64,000 nt of DNA from Escherichia coli (GTDB taxonomy: Bacteria; Pseudomonadota; Gammaproteobacteria; Enterobacterales; Enterobacteriaceae). Position 1 is the stretch's first letter. Each line of letters begins with the position of its first letter. Positions 2,825 through 11,499 of this stretch are shown piece after piece. The DNA lies in assembly GCF_003790525.1 (NCBI RefSeq), contig NZ_CP033635.1; one strand, 5' to 3'. Both the position numbers and the translations under genes were made by a program. The notes beneath the pieces are model-generated. The model searched no databases, was not told the DNA's origin, and saw only the letters and a program-made list of their open reading frames with translations.

Positions 2825-2863
2825 ATTTAATCAACATGCCACTTGCTCCTGGGAGGAACAATT

Positions 2864-4903
2864 ATGTCGTTTATTAAGCAAGATCCCCACCGTCTGGTCT
2901 GGCAACAAGACGATCGTTATCTCTGGATTGAAGCCTGGGGCGAAAACAGCTTACGCGTGCGAAGCGGCCGCCATTTACCGGTAATGCGCAATGAAAACTG
3001 GGCGTTAACTCAGGATCCTGGCGATGCTGTCGCTCATATCACCTGGGATGAAAAACAGGCAACGCTGAGAAATGGTAAAATCACTGCCATCGTAAATCTT
3101 CAGGGCCAGCTCTCTTTCTGGCGTAATGATGATAAATGCCTGCTGCAAGAGTTCTGGCGTCAACGTGGCGAAATTGGTGAAGATGAGTCAGCACACGGCC
3201 AATATGTGAGCGCTCTTAATCTACAGGCCCGTGAATTCAAGCCTATTCCTGGCGGGAAATTTACGATTAAGGCACGATTTGAAGCCAACGATGGCGAGAA
3301 ACTCTTTGGCATGGGTCAGTATCAGCAACCAAACCTGGATTTAAAAGGTTGCATGCTGGAGCTGGCACAACGTAACTCGCAGGCTTCTGTTCCCTTCCTG
3401 CTATCAAATCAGGGTTATGGTTTTCTGTGGAATAACCCAGCAATTGGCCGCGTCACCTTCGCGCAAAACGGTACGGAATGGGTAGCAGAAGTCAGTGAAC
3501 AACTGGACTACTGGATCACTGCGGGCGATACTCCGGCTGAGATCAGTGAAGCCTATGCACGAGTAACCGGTACGCCACCGATGATGCCTGATTACGCAAT
3601 GGGGTTCTGGCAATGCAAGCTTCGCTATCGTAATCAACAAGAATTGTTAGAAGTCGCACGCGGCTACAAGCAACGCAATCTTCCGATCTCGGTGATTGTC
3701 ATCGATTTCTTCCATTGGCCGAATCAGGGTGACTGGATGTTCGATCTGCGTGACTGGCCCGATCCCGATGCGATGATCGCCGAATTAAAAGAAATGGGTA
3801 TCGAACTGATGGTTTCATTCTGGCCTACCGTAGATAACCGTACCGAGAGTTATCGGGAGATGAAAGAAAACGGCTGGCTAGTCCACACCGAGCGTGGTTT
3901 GCCTATCAATATGGATTTCCTTGGCAACACCACGTTCTTTGATGCGACACATCCTGGCGCACGGGAATATGTCTGGAACAAAGCCAAACGCAATTATTAC
4001 GATAAAGGCGTGAAACTGTTCTGGCTGGATGAAGCCGAGCCAGAGTTCGGTGTTTACGATTATGACAACTATCGTTACTACGCAGGGCCAGTGCTGGAAG
4101 TCGGTAATATCTATCCGCGTATGTACGCCAAAACGTTCTTCGATGGCATGCAGGCAGCCGGAGAAAAGCAGGTGATCAATTTGCTACGCTGCGCCTGGGC
4201 CGGTAGTCAGAAATATGGTGCCCTGGTGTGGTCAGGCGATATCCACTCCTCCTTCCGTTCTCTGCGCAATCAGTTTGCTGCGGGGCTGAACATGGGAATT
4301 GCCGGGATCCCGTGGTGGACGACGGATATTGGCGGTTTCCACGGTGGCAACATACATGATCCAAAATTTCATGAACTGCTTATTCGCTGGTTCCAGTGGG
4401 GGGTATTCAGCCCAGTAATGCGTTTACATGGCAACCGCGACCCGCAAGTTTTGCCTGAACAACCCTATCGTGATGGCATCGCACAATGTCCGACTGGCGC
4501 GCCGAATGAAGTCTGGAGCTATGGTGAAGAAACCGGTGAAATTCTCACTTCCTGCCTGCAGTTGCGTGAGAAGCTGAAACCTTATATCAGTAAAATTATG
4601 GCTGAGACGCACGAGAAGAACAGCCCGGTAATGCGCACGATGTTCTTTGAGTTTCCAGACCAGGCAGAAAGCTGGAATATTTATGATCAGTACTGCTTTG
4701 GCCCGGACCTTCTCGTTGCCCCTGTAATGCACGAAGGTACACGTTCACGTGATGTCTGGTTGCCTGCCGGAGAGACATGGATCGATTTTTATACCCATGA
4801 ACACTACGCGGGTGGGCAAAAGCTTCATCATTGCGCGCCGCTGCACCAGATACCGGTATTCATTCGTGAGAAAGGGAAATATCGCCAGTTATTACCCGTT
4901 TAA
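2864..4903 (+). CDS. Glycoside hydrolase family 31 alpha-glycosidase (YicI/YihQ-like), ~679 aa
   Basis: ORF track begins at TTG 2843, but ATG 2864 has a GGGAGG Shine-Dalgarno 7 nt upstream; GH31 motifs FWLDEAEPE (candidate nucleophile Asp) and WSGDIHS (candidate acid/base Asp); 19 bp after the transporter stop, so likely one operon. Confidence 0.85.
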   Translation: MSFIKQDPHRLVWQQDDRYLWIEAWGENSLRVRSGRHLPVMRNENWALTQDPGDAVAHITWDEKQATLRNGKITAIVNLQGQLSFWRNDDKCLLQEFWRQRGEIGEDESAHGQYVSALNLQAREFKPIPGGKFTIKARFEANDGEKLFGMGQYQQPNLDLKGCMLELAQRNSQASVPFLLSNQGYGFLWNNPAIGRVTFAQNGTEWVAEVSEQLDYWITAGDTPAEISEAYARVTGTPPMMPDYAMGFWQCKLRYRNQQELLEVARGYKQRNLPISVIVIDFFHWPNQGDWMFDLRDWPDPDAMIAELKEMGIELMVSFWPTVDNRTESYREMKENGWLVHTERGLPINMDFLGNTTFFDATHPGAREYVWNKAKRNYYDKGVKLFWLDEAEPEFGVYDYDNYRYYAGPVLEVGNIYPRMYAKTFFDGMQAAGEKQVINLLRCAWAGSQKYGALVWSGDIHSSFRSLRNQFAAGLNMGIAGIPWWTTDIGGFHGGNIHDPKFHELLIRWFQWGVFSPVMRLHGNRDPQVLPEQPYRDGIAQCPTGAPNEVWSYGEETGEILTSCLQLREKLKPYISKIMAETHEKNSPVMRTMFFEFPDQAESWNIYDQYCFGPDLLVAPVMHEGTRSRDVWLPAGETWIDFYTHEHYAGGQKLHHCAPLHQIPVFIREKGKYRQLLPV

Positions 4904-5925: not shown

Positions 5926-7092
5926 TCAAACTGATGGACGCAAACGAACGCGTAACCAGCTGTATCCAATTACCGCCGAAGAGATAGAACCGACCAGGAT
6001 ACCGAGTTTCGCCCAGTTAATCAGTTCTGGATCTACGCTACCAAAGGCAAGGCTGGCAATAAAGATAGACATAGTAAAACCGATACCGCATAGGATCCCC
6101 ACCGCCATAATTTGCTGATAAGTCGTTCCCTCAGGCAGATGCGCCAGTTTCAAACGCAGCGCCAACCAGCAGAACAGACTAATACCCAGTGGCTTGCCAA
6201 TCAGCAAACCGGCGATGATCCCTAATGGCAGAATGGAGGTCAGGCCATCCAGCGTCACGCCTTGCAGAGATACCCCCGCATTGGCAAACGCAAACAACGG
6301 CAAAATCAGATATGCCACCCACGGATGCAAAACATGCTCCAGACGTTTAGCCGGAGAGCGCCCATGCTTCTCTTTTAACGGAATAAAGAAGCCGACAATG
6401 ACGCCAGCCAGCGTTGCATGGACACCTGATTTCAACACCGCTGTCCACAGTACCACGCCAACCAGAATATAAACGCCCGTGCGACGAACACCACAGATAT
6501 TCAGTACCGCGAGTACGGCAATCGCTACTGCCGCAACGCCGAGAGACGCCATCGATAAGTCATTAGTGTAGAACAATGCGATGATAATGATGGCCCCAAG
6601 ATCGTCGATAATAGCCAGAGCCATCAAAAAGATCTTCAGCGCTAACGGAACACGACTTCCCAACAGCGCCAGCACACCAAGTGCAAAGGCAATGTCAGTA
6701 GCCGCCGGGATCGCCCACCCTTCGCGGGTAATCGGATCGGCATAGTTAAAGGCCAGATAGAGCAATGCCGGCACAATCATCCCACCAATAGCGGCGATAA
6801 CTGGAAATGCGGCCTGGCGTAAGCTGGCTAGCGATCCTTGCATCAGTTCACGTTTAACTTCCAGACCGACTAACAGGAAAAATACCGCCATCAGCGCGTC
6901 ATTTATCCATAACAGCATGTTTTTGTTGATTTCGAGTGAACCAACCCGGAGCTGAACCGGCGTCTCCAGAAAGTCGTGATACCATCCACTGGTTGCGCCG
7001 CTATTGGCCATAATCATCGCCAGGATAGCGGCAATGATAAGAATAATGCCTCCCGAGGCATCACTGCTAAAGAATCGATGCAGATGTTTCAC
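5926..7092 (-). CDS. nhaA: Na+/H+ antiporter NhaA
   Basis: 388-aa polytopic membrane protein [51 protein letters not shown]... Confidence 0.95.
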
Positions 7093-7343
7093 TTTTTATT
7101 TCTCTTTCAGGTGAATAGATCGTTTTTACTATTTTACCCCGCACGAATCATCGTTAAAATCAGATTATAGTGTAGGAATAATTCGTTTTTTACGAACCAT
7201 TGAAGGATTTGTGCCATCAGCGATGAGATGATTTTTTGACGGCTGTAAGCGCTCACGAGTGACCCTAAGCCCTGATAATCATAGCTTAAGGTGAGGATTT
7301 CTGAGGGATTAATTAGGAAAAGTAATAATAAAATCGCACTGTG

Positions 7344-8588
7344 CTATAGCTGTTTATTCCAGAGATGCTTGAAAATATCTAATGTGGAGACAACATTGGC
7401 AGGCGACATTCGGTTTAATGAGGATAGAAAGGGATGAGACTCCAGGAAGTTGATAAAACGAGTCGCGCTTGCTAACGTCGAATACCGCATTTCATTTGCT
7501 TTCTTGTTTCCTGTAAGGTTACAAACAGCCATTGAATAATCACGGGCGGAAAATGTACGCCAAACATTATTTCTCACGCCACCACTCAAAAACAACCGCG
7601 GCGGCGTATCATAATGAGTCGTTTTCTCGCCGCGTTCTTTCACAAATGAAATATGGCACCGGCCTTGATGAATATGCTGTAAATTAGCCATCAGACAACC
7701 ACCTAATATAAAGCACTCGTGATCAAGGTAGTGTTGAATATTTATAGAATATGCTTCAGTCAGTGCTCTAACCAGTTCAAAATGGCGATACGCCGGAAGA
7801 ACCGGTTTCACCAACATCCCCGGATCGTTTTGATGTAATATCGCCCGACCATAATCAATATCAAATAAGGTATCACGCCGCATAGTAAGTAACTCCTTGC
7901 GTTGTACGTGATGCGCCAGTGTACCTGGAGACAAACGCTCTTCATAACTTGATGCATATTGATAATGCGACTCTACCGCTGATGGAGAATAATTTGTTGA
8001 AATAGCGACGACTCTACCGCTTTGTTCTTCTGCGGTAACAAGGCTATAAAGATAGTTATTACTACCGTTAAACTTTACGCGAAAAGCGCGGGTAGATAGA
8101 GAAATATCAGAAGCAGAAGAGTATTGGTAACTTTCTTTATAGTTTACTTCCCGGGCTAGTTTCATCAACTCACGGTTAAGCCCTGTGCTATTAAGAAGTA
8201 ATAATTTACGGATATCTGCAAGTGAAGCGCCTTGATCAATCATCAATGCTAAATGTGTTCTTCGCGGCGTTGTATTTACATGATCCAGAGTGATAAAAGT
8301 TCTGGAACAATGATGACAATACATTCTCCTCTGCCCCTGAGCTGAATAGCCATACTTTTTCAGAGATGTGCTTCCGCAAGCTGAACATTGTGGAACCAAC
8401 CCTCTCCATGAATGATTAACACGATTACGATAAATATTAAGAGATCGTTCAGATATCACAGGAAACAAGTAACCGCATTCCCGACATAAAATATTTTTTC
8501 CTTGTGCAATATAATCCTGGCTATTCAACAACCCCAGGTTTTTGCATCCTGGTGTTTTGCAACAATCAACATTTACGTTGGTAAACAT
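7344..8588 (-). CDS. Uncharacterised Cys-rich protein with two predicted CxxC...CxxC zinc-ribbon modules (InsA-like), ~414 aa
   Basis: ORF track starts at 8624, but the ATG at 8588 (MFTNVNV) has AGGGAG 6 nt upstream; motifs CKTPGC...CRECG and CSACGSTSLKKYGYSAQGQRRMYCHHCSRTF; C-terminal ~300 aa with no motif I recognise. Confidence 0.7.
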   Translation of the reverse strand: MFTNVNVDCCKTPGCKNLGLLNSQDYIAQGKNILCRECGYLFPVISERSLNIYRNRVNHSWRGLVPQCSACGSTSLKKYGYSAQGQRRMYCHHCSRTFITLDHVNTTPRRTHLALMIDQGASLADIRKLLLLNSTGLNRELMKLAREVNYKESYQYSSASDISLSTRAFRVKFNGSNNYLYSLVTAEEQSGRVVAISTNYSPSAVESHYQYASSYEERLSPGTLAHHVQRKELLTMRRDTLFDIDYGRAILHQNDPGMLVKPVLPAYRHFELVRALTEAYSINIQHYLDHECFILGGCLMANLQHIHQGRCHISFVKERGEKTTHYDTPPRLFLSGGVRNNVWRTFSARDYSMAVCNLTGNKKANEMRYSTLASATRFINFLESHPFLSSLNRMSPANVVSTLDIFKHLWNKQL

Positions 8589-8628
8589 ATTCACTCCCTG
8601 CGAATACCCGGATATTATCGTCATATGT

Positions 8629-8669
8629 CAAAGAAAAGAACCTGACTCAATGTGTAACATTGAATCAGG
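8629..8669 (-). terminator. Candidate intrinsic terminator/attenuator between the sulfatase gene and the Cys-rich gene
   Basis: 12-bp inverted repeat cctgactcaatg(tgtaa)cattgaatcagg; on the minus-strand RNA the stem is complete with one G-U pair and is followed by UUCUUUUCUUU. Confidence 0.45.
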
Positions 8670-8717
8670 CGGGCATGGCCCTGAAAGGCATACATTACAT
8701 TTATTATGGTTATCAGA

Positions 8718-10211
8718 TTAGCCCCAGGTTACCGCTTCCGGTTTATCACCTCTGGCTTTCATTAATGAATCATTATCAATATCGGCTTTATACTTTAAGA
8801 ACTTACCATACATTTGTTTTTCAATGTCTGGATTTTTACCTATCTGATTAATGGTCTCAAAACGATCGGTTTTGAGGTTGTATAGGTACTTTGGCTTATT
8901 GTTACGATCGATGATCATTTTCCAGTCACCATCACGTATCGCCCATTCGTCGGTTGGATCATCCTGGAATGGCATGTCAATTCCGAAGATTAATGGCTTT
9001 TCACGTTTTAGCGCTTTGTTCTCAAGGACAGGAACCAACGATTCGCCATCAAAAGTCCGGTCCGTCGGTAATTTGAAGTTCATCATTTTCGCCAGCGTAG
9101 GCATCCAGTCCAGACCATAAACAGGCGTATCTGAAACCATTCCCTTTGGAAGATGCTTTCCGTATTTAATAATCGCCGGAACACGGATGCCACCTTCCCA
9201 GAGATTATCCTTGCGACCACGTAATCCATCAGTTTCCCCTGCCAAATTCAGTTCATAAACTTTGCGCGCTTCACGCGTTACTGGTCCGTTATCACTGGTA
9301 AAAATAACGATGGTGTTATCTTCTTCACCCATCGCTTTGATTTTATCCAGTACTTTTCCAACCTGAGCATCCAGATAACTGATGTTGGCATAATATTCTC
9401 CTGTACCACGCCAGGGTTTATCCGCCCAGTCGCCATAAAATAAATCAGGATGCTGCTTCTGATAGTCGCTCATATATTGTGAGTACATGTCGAGGTATTT
9501 TTTGGGCGAAGCCAGGGGACTGTGCACTTCGGTAAAAGCGACATAAAGGAAGAAAGGCTTACTGTCCTTTTTGTTATCCAACCAGTTGACGACTTCCGAA
9601 CTGACATACTCACCACTCATTTTATCGGAACGTGGTGTGGGTTGCCCGTTACGCAACCAGCCCGTTGGATAGACCATGCCAAAACGGGGACGCTCCTTCG
9701 CATTATCCAGAGTAGCGTCGGTAACAAAACCCGCCGTATTAACCAGTGAGTAATCAAAGCCCATATCTTTTGCCTGCGGCTGATCGGTGCGATCGCCGCC
9801 TGCATTCAGATGCAGCTTACCCATCATGGCCGTGTCGTACCCTTGCGCTTTGAGTAGATTAGCAATCGTGAGTTCATTACGCCCTAATGCCACATCTTTT
9901 CCCGTTGGGATCCATGAGCGTATGCCGGTACGAAATGGCATCCGCCCTGTTAATAGTCCCGCCCGTGAAGGAGAACTTAAGGGGGCAGGTGCATAATAGT
10001 CGGTAAATTTGACGCCTTCCTGGGCAAGCCTGTCTATATTGGGCGTTTTAACGATCTGATGTCCATATGTTGCCAAATCACCATAGCCTAAATCATCCGC
10101 CATAATGATGACTAAATTGGGTTGTTTAGTTTCGGCGGCTACGGCTGGATTAAAAGCATTCCCTGTGCAAACTGCAAGGCCGATCAAACTGGCCATTAAT
10201 GTTTTCTGCAT
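8718..10211 (-). CDS. Secreted sulfatase (arylsulfatase family), Ser-type active-site motif SSPSR, ~497 aa
   Basis: Sulfatase signature PNLVIIMADDLGYGDL, active-site block PLSSPSRAGLLTGR (Ser at the formylglycine position), second signature GYDTAMMGKLH; N-terminal signal peptide MQKTLMASLIGLAVCTGNA; start chosen at ATG 10211 with AGGGA RBS (track ORF extends to 10247). Confidence 0.85.
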   Translation of the reverse strand: MQKTLMASLIGLAVCTGNAFNPAVAAETKQPNLVIIMADDLGYGDLATYGHQIVKTPNIDRLAQEGVKFTDYYAPAPLSSPSRAGLLTGRMPFRTGIRSWIPTGKDVALGRNELTIANLLKAQGYDTAMMGKLHLNAGGDRTDQPQAKDMGFDYSLVNTAGFVTDATLDNAKERPRFGMVYPTGWLRNGQPTPRSDKMSGEYVSSEVVNWLDNKKDSKPFFLYVAFTEVHSPLASPKKYLDMYSQYMSDYQKQHPDLFYGDWADKPWRGTGEYYANISYLDAQVGKVLDKIKAMGEEDNTIVIFTSDNGPVTREARKVYELNLAGETDGLRGRKDNLWEGGIRVPAIIKYGKHLPKGMVSDTPVYGLDWMPTLAKMMNFKLPTDRTFDGESLVPVLENKALKREKPLIFGIDMPFQDDPTDEWAIRDGDWKMIIDRNNKPKYLYNLKTDRFETINQIGKNPDIEKQMYGKFLKYKADIDNDSLMKARGDKPEAVTWG

Positions 10212-10230
10212 AATTATTCCCTGATGAAAA

Positions 10231-10992
10231 TTAGAAATCATAACCAAGCATATAAATCATTTGATCGCCAAAACCATCGTAGCCCAACTTATTATCGAAA
10301 TAACGCCACGTCACACTGGCTTTCCAGCGAGGATAGAACTTCCAGGCCACTGTTAAACCGCCATTTAGCCCATTCCGACCAAATTGTTGTTCCGCATAGG
10401 CATCATTTCTGTCCAGTTCTATTTCATTCCAGTTAGATAAAACAAATTTTTCGTCAAATAACGTAAAAGGTAATACTGCTGTCCAGCCAACAACATAACC
10501 ATTCCAGCCATTTGTTTGTCCATATTTGGCTGAGACGTAGTCTCCAGATTGATTATGTAATCCAATATACGGTTTAAAAAACCCCCATGAACCATTCCAG
10601 CCGAGGTAGCCCAAACCATAAAACATATCAAGATCGTCACCCCATGAGTTATCCCATTGACCATAGATCTTGCCAAAGAAAGTCATATTGGAGTCAAAGA
10701 GTCTGACATGTGTCATAGCAGAAACGGTATGATTACGCCCCGCTACGGCATGGTTAAGCACATTGCTTTCATAAAATGAGTAAAACTCGGCTTCTTTAAA
10801 ATTCACACCAAAGTCTGCAGTCACTTTCCATACTTCACCACGATGAGTGTTAACGAAGCCACTATTCCAGTCAGCATAACCTGCATTTATTGAGCCAAAG
10901 GAACCTTTATATTCTAATGAAGAATATGCAGGAAGGTGATAGAAAATCGTTGTCAGGGCACACGCAATAAGAAGCCGTCTTTTGGCAGACAT
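10231..10992 (-). CDS. Tsx/OmpK-like outer-membrane channel protein, 253 aa
   Basis: Signal peptide MSAKRRLLIACALTTIFYHLPAYS, Trp/Tyr/Gly-rich beta-barrel-like sequence, C-terminal Phe; WDNSWGDDLD block resembles Tsx; GGAGAG RBS; ends 19 bp upstream of the sulfatase start. Confidence 0.7.
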   Translation of the reverse strand: MSAKRRLLIACALTTIFYHLPAYSSLEYKGSFGSINAGYADWNSGFVNTHRGEVWKVTADFGVNFKEAEFYSFYESNVLNHAVAGRNHTVSAMTHVRLFDSNMTFFGKIYGQWDNSWGDDLDMFYGLGYLGWNGSWGFFKPYIGLHNQSGDYVSAKYGQTNGWNGYVVGWTAVLPFTLFDEKFVLSNWNEIELDRNDAYAEQQFGRNGLNGGLTVAWKFYPRWKASVTWRYFDNKLGYDGFGDQMIYMLGYDF

Positions 10993-11499
10993 ATAATATG
11001 CTCTCCATTCATTTTTTTTATGGTTCCATAGAAATCAATACATCAGATAATTCATTTTGATTAAGAACGACTCAGAAAGTATATTTAAAGGTGAATGGCA
11101 AAGCGTGATGGAGATCGCAGATTACTTTTACCCCCGGGTGTGGAGGTATCGTGTTTCAAAAAGTGTGTCGATTTTAAATATCACTCATTGATTTATAAAC
11201 ATTTTTCCTCACAAAAAGAAAATTCAATTCTGTACAAGAATATTTTGTATCTTCTATTACTTTCTCCAGTAATAACTCACCATTCAGGCATAACTTAAAC
11301 CTCTTGTTCATAATCTCAACTTTTGTAAATGAAAACGCACATAAGAGTTAAAATAAACAATGTACTAAAGATTGATTACGCAAAAATGCGAGGCGTCTTC
11401 AGGATTAGAATCGATAAAACAGAATGGGTTAAAGAGAGCGATATAATAGCGGCGGGTGCTTGAGGCTGTCTGTCTCAGGCATTAGCTGAACGGCAGATA

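Follow-up and report, generated by a model that had tools for sequence, protein, structure and literature searches.

The protein of 414 amino acids encoded at positions 7344-8588 on the minus strand of a 64,000-nucleotide stretch of Escherichia coli DNA (the window; RefSeq assembly GCF_003790525.1, contig NZ_CP033635.1) may be a domesticated IS1-like transposase that acts as a local DNA-binding transcription regulator, and we put the chances of this at about even. The protein, for which the short name X is used, has an InsA-like DNA-binding head and a body predicted to have the fold of a DDE transposase. The window matches the start of the chromosome of E. coli SMS-3-5 (NC_010498.1, 100%), reverse-complemented, and stands for SMS-3-5 in the strain comparisons. 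The RefSeq entry WP_012311863.1, 'IS1/IS1595 family N-terminal zinc-binding domain-containing protein', has identical coordinates, in agreement with the reading frame and length given in an earlier reading made from the letters of the window alone (the sequence-only reading). The ATG at 8588 was taken as the start in preference to the ATG at 8624 because the N-terminus beginning MF is conserved in 23 orthologs. X and its parts are as follows.

7344-8588, minus strand: X coding sequence (WP_012311863.1, 414 amino acids), with orthologs and a ratio of nonsynonymous to synonymous substitution rates (dN/dS) of 0.09-0.13
8457-8564, minus strand: zinc ribbon 1, residues 9-44 (C10, C15, C35, C38); cysteines at least 90% conserved in 44 sequences, AlphaFold2 beta strands 26-43
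8289-8393, minus strand: zinc ribbon 2, InsA/IS1595 type, residues 66-100 (C68, C71, C91, C94), from NF050000 and hhalign
8130-8276, minus strand: helix-turn-helix (HTH)-like region, homolog of the InsA HTH, residues 105-153, from hhalign; AlphaFold2 helices 108-118, 123-130 and 134-153
7659-8117, minus strand: predicted RNase H-like (DDE transposase/integrase) core, residues 158-310, apparently with no conserved DDE triad
7347-7658, minus strand: extra beta sheet (311-357) and C-terminal helical bundle (364-413) of the AlphaFold2 model, with conserved W343 and N411

The cysteines of X lie at positions 9, 10, 15, 35 and 38 and at 68, 71, 91 and 94. In a family alignment of 44 sequences, reaching down to 17% identity, C10, C15, C35, C38, C68, C71, C91 and C94 show at least 90% conservation, up to full invariance. 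Retention of these eight cysteines down to such an identity is far beyond chance and thus the two zinc ribbons are real features. The sequence-only reading had described both as CxxC...CxxC modules. This is exactly right for the second (C68-x2-C71...C91-x2-C94), and the first has the form Cx4C...CxxC (C10-x4-C15...C35-x2-C38). Its likening of the second module to InsA was upheld by profile comparison. X scores 31.8 bits against NCBIfam NF050000, above the cutoff of 28, which explains the RefSeq product name, and hhalign of the family profile against IS1 InsA gave a probability of 96.9% (E 2e-10), with residues 65-141 of X aligned to residues 5-84 of InsA. As the alignment runs to residue 141 of X and residue 84 of InsA, the homology includes the HTH besides the ribbon. 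The InsAB' profile was also found, with a probability of 95.3% and aligned over the head alone, and Pfam Zn_ribbon_InsA was matched in 8 of the 44 family members. Judged by these comparisons, the resemblance of ribbon 2 to InsA is one of true homology.

Nothing was detected in residues 155-414 by the sequence methods used. Pfam, searched with X and 44 relatives, returned only weak zinc-ribbon matches, with no DDE family and no PF03400; a profile search of PDB sequences brought up C2H2 zinc fingers alone, as compositional matches; hhalign against IS1 InsB gave a probability of 0.3%, and no similarity to InsB was seen in the comparison with the InsAB' profile either. The curated IS1 transposase model NF033558 scored 28.1 bits against a cutoff of 100, over the N-terminus only, and none of the IS1595 and IS256 DDE models in Pfam and NCBIfam matched X. 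The sequence-only reading had likewise stated that the remaining ~300 residues match nothing. This has been overturned, as the HTH and an RNase H-like DDE transposase fold are recognised with AlphaFold2 and Foldseek.

The AlphaFold2 model of X, made from the 44-sequence alignment, has a mean predicted local distance difference test score (pLDDT) of 91.7 and a predicted template modelling score (pTM) of 0.92. Its core runs beta 161-173, beta 178-187, beta 193-198, alpha 224-237, beta 258-260, alpha 263-280, beta 283-288 and alpha 292-307, and this beta-beta-beta-alpha-beta-alpha-beta-alpha arrangement is the RNase H order. A Foldseek search of AFDB50 found the same full-length fold, at template modelling (TM) scores of 0.75-0.84 and ~20% identity, in proteins of Vibrio, Photobacterium, Enterovibrio, Proteus, Serratia and Enterobacter. 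On the modelled core and these full-length matches, the architecture of a DDE transposase extends over the entire protein and not over the ribbon alone. The catalytic positions were located by secondary-structure register. The first Asp position, in the middle of beta-1, corresponds to S165/T166 and the second, at the end of beta-4, to K261/P262, both of which are conserved. E291 is the sole always-acidic column family-wide in residues 155-414, the next best columns being 75%, 68% and 66% acidic. On this mapping the catalytic D, D, E/D triad does not appear to be conserved across the X family.

The behaviour of the gene is that of a host gene. Among 5426 complete E. coli genomes X was found in 1171, always in one copy, always at the same site and always on the chromosome. 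Two allele classes are present in E. coli, one at least 95% identical (230 genomes) and one ~81% identical (941 genomes). No copy was found on true plasmids, as the orthologous matches in the plasmid collection were mislabelled chromosomes. Chromosomes or fragments labelled as plasmids in this way include L040 (NZ_LN868945.1), L041 (NZ_CP141089.1) and hits H51-H53, among them a 4.9-Mb 'plasmid' and a 148-kb 'plasmid 3' carrying katG-metF-metL-metB-metJ. Searches for inverted and direct repeats around the gene and around the module in which it lies found no ends in E. coli, Scandinavium, Atlantibacter, Buttiauxella and Klebsiella, and terminal inverted repeats were absent in all five genera. 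No partner transposase reading frame lies beside X. The sequence-only reading had noted the lack of both inverted repeats or insertion sequence ends and a transposase-like partner, and both observations stand, the former now for the gene and the island. In Scandinavium there is no room for a transposon end since the stop codon of X overlaps the convergent neighbour. X is not an insertion sequence. The sequence-only reading had also named DDE homology of the C-terminal domain together with inverted repeats as the mark of an insertion sequence remnant. A DDE-like fold is found and terminal inverted repeats are not; because the repeats are missing despite the fold, X is not regarded as such a remnant.

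Between SMS-3-5, UTI89 and E. albertii the dN/dS of X is 0.09-0.13 at a dS of ~1, which indicates long-term purifying selection, and ortholog identity drops roughly along the host phylogeny. The suggestion of the sequence-only reading that X is transposase-derived and domesticated is supported by the single chromosomal copy, the purifying selection, the synteny across genera and the absence of terminal repeats. The dN of X is 5-10 times that of the neighbouring sulfatase gene and nhaA. Local regulators often evolve faster than neighbouring enzymes. The nucleotide identity of SMS-3-5 and UTI89 over 5926-10992 is 99.7% for the channel gene, 91.5% for the sulfatase gene, 80.6% for X and 92.2% for nhaA, and the dS of X between these two strains, ~1.0, is as great as the distance to E. 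albertii. Divergence of nhaAR between B2 strains and those outside B2 has been reported earlier (PMC4182557) and is extended by this gradient.

X is the last gene of an island that is missing from K-12.

8718-10211, minus strand: periplasmic sulfatase, with Ser at the formylglycine position (SSPSR) in Escherichia
10231-10992, minus strand: Tsx/OmpK-family outer-membrane channel, from RefSeq/NCBIfam, with Pfam Channel_Tsx in orthologous loci
7333-11374, no strand assigned: channel-sulfatase-X island, 4042 bp

On the minus strand the genes run dnaK, dnaJ, (mokC/hokC/sokC), channel, sulfatase, X, nhaA, nhaR. K-12 has an unrelated 113 bp in place of the 4042-bp island, and the edge of the island lies 11 bp past the stop codon of X. 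The island corresponds to the volatile 'putative cerebroside sulfatase' module beside nhaAR of Lescat et al. 2014 (PMC4182557). The sulfatase has a signal peptide and X has none. An Rfam scan of the region matched sokC alone. X is found in B2/F-type E. coli (e.g. UTI89 and SMS-3-5), Salmonella, Klebsiella and Citrobacter.

A pattern scan (alignment A1) that took one genome from each species, with neighbours identified by tblastn, gave 21 further loci, 27 in total. X lies immediately downstream of the sulfatase gene, with or without a maturase gene between them, in all 26 loci with upstream DNA, the 27th being at a contig end, and the linkage to the sulfatase noted by the sequence-only reading is confirmed. 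A radical-SAM/SPASM maturase (anSME) gene separates the sulfatase gene from X in 18 of the 27 loci, ending 24-35 bp before X. It is missing in nine loci from eight species of four genera (four Escherichia, two Klebsiella, Phytobacter massiliensis and Kluyvera intermedia). The module lies between dnaJ and nhaA in most genera and occupies at least five chromosomal sites overall; Scandinavium, Atlantibacter, the Buttiauxella/Franconibacter group and C. amalonaticus have it elsewhere. Next to it there is often an arylsulfate sulfotransferase gene. Two such genes belong to the cluster of Salmonella and Citrobacter, and the channel gene, there divergent, is co-oriented with a gene of the 5'-nucleotidase family (UshA/CpdB/SoxB superfamily; L002 2168-3730 in Salmonella). 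Such company is a hint at a sulfated nucleotide or nucleoside as substrate, or else at joint scavenging of sulfate and nucleotides.

Residue 79 of the sulfatase, the formylglycine position, is Ser (SSPSR) in all five Escherichia orthologs compared (SMS-3-5, UTI89, E. albertii, E. whittamii and E. sp.), all of which lack an adjacent anSME gene, and Cys (CSPSR) in all 14 non-Escherichia sulfatases checked, four of which also lack one. The sulfatase has a dN/dS of 0.02-0.03, indicating strong purifying selection. Either another maturase acts on the Escherichia enzyme or its chemistry has changed. In Salmonella the two-gene unit SL0037-SL0038 shows a 4-fold change with SsrB and a binding peak in its 5' intergenic region (PMC2837388). 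The interval between nhaR and rpsT is another variable part of the locus, with genes for a major facilitator superfamily (MFS) transporter and a GH31 glycoside hydrolase in SMS-3-5 (2843-4903, plus strand, and upstream) and IS1A in K-12. As to the Salmonella unit, SL0037-SL0038 (STM0036 and the next gene) are presumably the anSME gene and the ortholog of X.

An exhaustive HMMER search gave 98 family representatives, all apparently gammaproteobacterial; a profile search with alignment A2 found no more distant homologs than the single-sequence search. Distant relatives of X (22-33% identity) adjoin genes for nucleoside or nucleotide scavenging at all seven loci, and four of the seven were counted as lying divergently from those genes.

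L008: divergent from nupC and a PNP/Udp gene
L009 (Photobacterium): downstream of a PNP/Udp gene
L010 and L037 (Agarivorans): divergent from (nupC-)deoC-deoA-deoB-deoD, flanked on the opposite side by genes for Bmp-type ABC transport
L035 (Proteus) and L039 (C. amalonaticus): divergent from a 5'-nucleotidase gene
L036 (Vibrio aquaticus): 52 bp downstream of a 5'-nucleotidase gene
L042 1816-4632 (E. coli M7424, metF-metL) and L040 (Salmonella Senftenberg): in addition to the seven, island of the second paralog and a 5'-nucleotidase gene

The second paralog, of 376 amino acids and 26% identity to X, is present in ~1181 of the 5426 E. coli genomes and in Salmonella. It lies between metF and metL, divergent from a 5'-nucleotidase gene, which is a classic layout of regulator and target, and the 132-bp intergenic region contains a perfect CRP site, TGTGAGAGTAATCACA. 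The 5'-nucleotidase of the Salmonella sulfatase cluster is 54-55% identical to the partners of the paralogs in Proteus and C. amalonaticus, and this shared subfamily ties the sulfatase clade and the paralog clade to one functional theme. At L039 5313-8249 in C. amalonaticus the paralog of X and its divergent 5'-nucleotidase gene are each split into two reading frames by apparent frameshifts, which could be a pseudogene pair or sequencing error.

Upstream of the first gene of the module, 13 of the 16 loci scanned have a promoter layout in common, which returns in front of the sulfatase gene in loci with a divergent channel gene. It consists of a AAATCAATAAGTTA-like block, a AACACnTTTTTGnCACTC-like block, a spacer of ~30 bp, a CRP-like site and, ~20 bp further on, a -10 element.

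11179-11196, minus strand: block 1, consensus AAATCAATAAGTTA; agrees with the IHF consensus, with a likeness to the inner IS1 inverted repeat
11150-11169, minus strand: block 2, consensus AACACnTTTTTGnCACTC, candidate operator at a fixed distance from the CRP-like site across genera
11104-11119, minus strand: CRP-like site TGCGATCTCCATCACG, in agreement with the consensus at 8-10 of 10 positions in 13 of the 16 loci scanned
8640-8670, minus strand: terminator-like hairpin (14-bp stem, T tract) separating X from the sulfatase gene

With TATACT (11078-11083) taken as the -10 element, the CRP-like site would lie ~41 bp upstream of the inferred transcription start. Block 2 is the best candidate for an operator. 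When block 1 was compared with the inner IS1 inverted repeat (AACTTAYTGAT), AACTTATTGAT was identical in Atlantibacter. The idea that block 1 is a relic of a transposon end, or an operator, was dropped as undecidable, since the block agrees with the IHF consensus WATCAANNNNTTR as well. The ends of IS1 contain an IHF site, and for this reason the resemblance is not usable as evidence of binding by X. A CCTGACT motif in three of the seven intergenic regions of the distant relatives was within chance. The hairpin at 8640-8670 is kept with compensatory changes in five Escherichia lineages and occupies the spot of the anSME gene in other genera. Such a conserved hairpin ahead of X fits low-level expression of a regulator.

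How X might act can be outlined from these observations, the DNA binding, the target and the regulatory role being what we infer from the homology, fold, copy number, selection and synteny observed. The head, with two zinc ribbons and an InsA-type HTH, would keep the sequence-specific DNA binding of the transposase; the body keeps the RNase H-like fold, apparently without the catalytic DDE triad, and the transposon ends are gone. Maintained as a single-copy host gene inside the module of channel, sulfatase and, where present, maturase genes, X would bind the promoter region of the module and modulate transcription, the candidate region being that upstream of the CRP-like site, including 11150-11169. 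The former catalytic domain might serve in oligomerisation, ligand sensing or both. A transcription factor for the porin-sulfatase genes, as the sequence-only reading had put forward, is plausible. The indirect grounds for a regulator are the InsA-type DNA-binding module, the gene neighbourhoods, with relatives often divergent from adjacent catabolic genes, and the conserved block in the promoter. A more tentative extension, which we would sooner doubt than expect, is that the whole family consists of ligand-responsive transcription factors for periplasmic modules that scavenge nucleotides, nucleosides and sulfated substrates (Tsx-like channel, 5'-nucleotidase, NupC/Deo, sulfatase), with the DDE site turned into a sensor pocket.

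Several observations weigh against a regulator. X is the last gene of its module and is not divergent from it. No operator attributable to X was found in the promoter regions, block 1 being equally well explained as an IHF site, and k-mer enrichment in the intergenic regions of the seven distant relatives gave nothing above shuffled controls. In the metF-metL paralog the two ribbons and the RNase H domain are present and the HTH segment is missing, so the common function of the family may not need the HTH. Eight acidic positions are invariant within the sulfatase clade, and by the secondary-structure register none of them falls in the middle of beta-1 or at the end of beta-4. The conserved polar residues N199, Y211, R238, H269 and E291, with W343, suggest a retained pocket which could be catalytic. 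No literature on the X family was found.

Some of these points favour an enzyme or ligand-binding protein of nucleotide or nucleoside (or sulfated-nucleotide) metabolism, for example a nuclease or nucleotide-binding factor, that would work through a remodelled RNase H-like pocket and would not be a transcription factor. The relatives adjoin only genes for nucleoside and nucleotide scavenging (Tsx-like channel, NupC, Deo, PNP/Udp and 5'-nucleotidase), one 5'-nucleotidase subfamily accompanies both the Salmonella sulfatase clade and the paralogs, R238, H269 and E291 are invariant, and the paralog does without the HTH. However, only one acidic residue is invariant family-wide, the InsA-type head is kept in most members, the adjacent enzymes are periplasmic whereas X is cytoplasmic, and no enzyme match was found in Pfam, NCBIfam or PADLOC (none of the PADLOC defence families was matched by X and two relatives). 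We hold such an enzyme to be rather improbable. An accessory factor for the sulfatase, as the sequence-only reading had offered, is less probable again. X would then be a cytoplasmic protein that holds or delivers unfolded pre-sulfatase for formylglycine formation, or aids its export, and its strict adjacency to the sulfatase gene, its place 24-35 bp past the maturase gene in 18 of the 27 loci and the ability of zinc ribbons to mediate protein-protein contacts are what one would expect of it. X is nonetheless kept in the nine loci that have lost the maturase gene, relatives elsewhere lie beside nucleoside or nucleotide genes without any sulfatase, the signal peptide is on the sulfatase and not on X, and the overall architecture is that of a DNA transposase.

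The reading with the smallest chance, and a very slight one, is that X still works as a transposase, or has decayed from one only recently, and carries the channel-sulfatase module as its cargo, in a large IS1-family transposon or an insertion sequence remnant. The DDE-type fold with an IS1-type head, the presence of the module at five or more chromosomal sites in the Enterobacteriaceae, the island border 11 bp beyond the X stop codon and the likeness of block 1 to the inner IS1 inverted repeat can all be quoted for it. Against these stand the exactly single copy at one site in 1171 E. coli genomes with none on true plasmids, the absence of terminal inverted repeats in five genera, the overlap of the X stop codon with the neighbouring gene in Scandinavium, purifying selection that has lasted to saturated dS, identity that roughly follows the host phylogeny, and the apparent lack of a family-wide DDE triad and of profile similarity to InsB. 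A domesticated transposase acting as a local regulator is the reading retained.

The zinc ribbon of X is already flagged in databases. In the literature no description was found of its DDE-fold body, its family, its fixed synteny or its association with nucleoside and sulfatase genes. That DDE transposases can be domesticated into host regulators is well established for eukaryotes and barely documented for bacteria. X offers a tractable case of domestication in a model organism, being a single-copy selected gene with a confident structural model, and the paralog divergently paired with a 5'-nucleotidase gene is a clean genetic test bed. A role for X would help to explain the channel-sulfatase island beside nhaAR. 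If the family does consist of ligand-responsive factors, each with a pair of zinc ribbons, in most cases an HTH, and an RNase H domain that has been catalytically remodelled, it would be a previously undescribed gammaproteobacterial family and a bacterial counterpart of the eukaryotic transposase-derived transcription factors.

The nearest known system is IS1, whose InsA is a sequence-specific DNA-binding repressor. InsA and InsAB', like X, have an N-terminal C4 zinc ribbon followed by an HTH, with the DNA-binding head before the RNase H-type domain, and the beta-4 motif VKPVLPAY of X may correspond in position to 'TDGWPLY' of IS1. X differs from IS1 in its extra N-terminal zinc ribbon and its single reading frame without a frameshift, as well as in having no inverted repeats, one copy per genome, no conserved DDE, no similarity to InsB and a score far below the NF033558 cutoff. 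The zinc-ribbon domains of IS1595 and IS256 type (NF050000 and NF048018) are domain-level labels only, and of these X passes the NF050000 cutoff. The RNase H-like DDE catalytic cores of the ISCth4 (IS256/Mutator) transposase, Mos1, retroviral integrases and Tn5 are 7-12% identical to X, in which their catalytic Asp positions, placed by the secondary-structure register, are not conserved. Sulfatase maturation of the anSME/AtsB type is a different matter, as X has no Pfam or NCBIfam match to radical SAM or SPASM domains and a separate anSME gene is present in 18 of the 27 loci. Transposase-derived DNA-binding proteins include CENP-B, FHY3/FAR1 and ZBED in eukaryotes and the TnpB-derived TldR repressors and TnpA-REP in bacteria. 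We know of no described bacterial domesticated protein of IS1-like DDE origin. The logic proposed for X is the same as in CENP-B, FHY3, ZBED, TldR and TnpA-REP, in that the module for DNA binding is retained, the catalytic activity disappears and a single-copy selected gene of the host results, the difference being that X would derive from a bacterial IS1-like DDE element.

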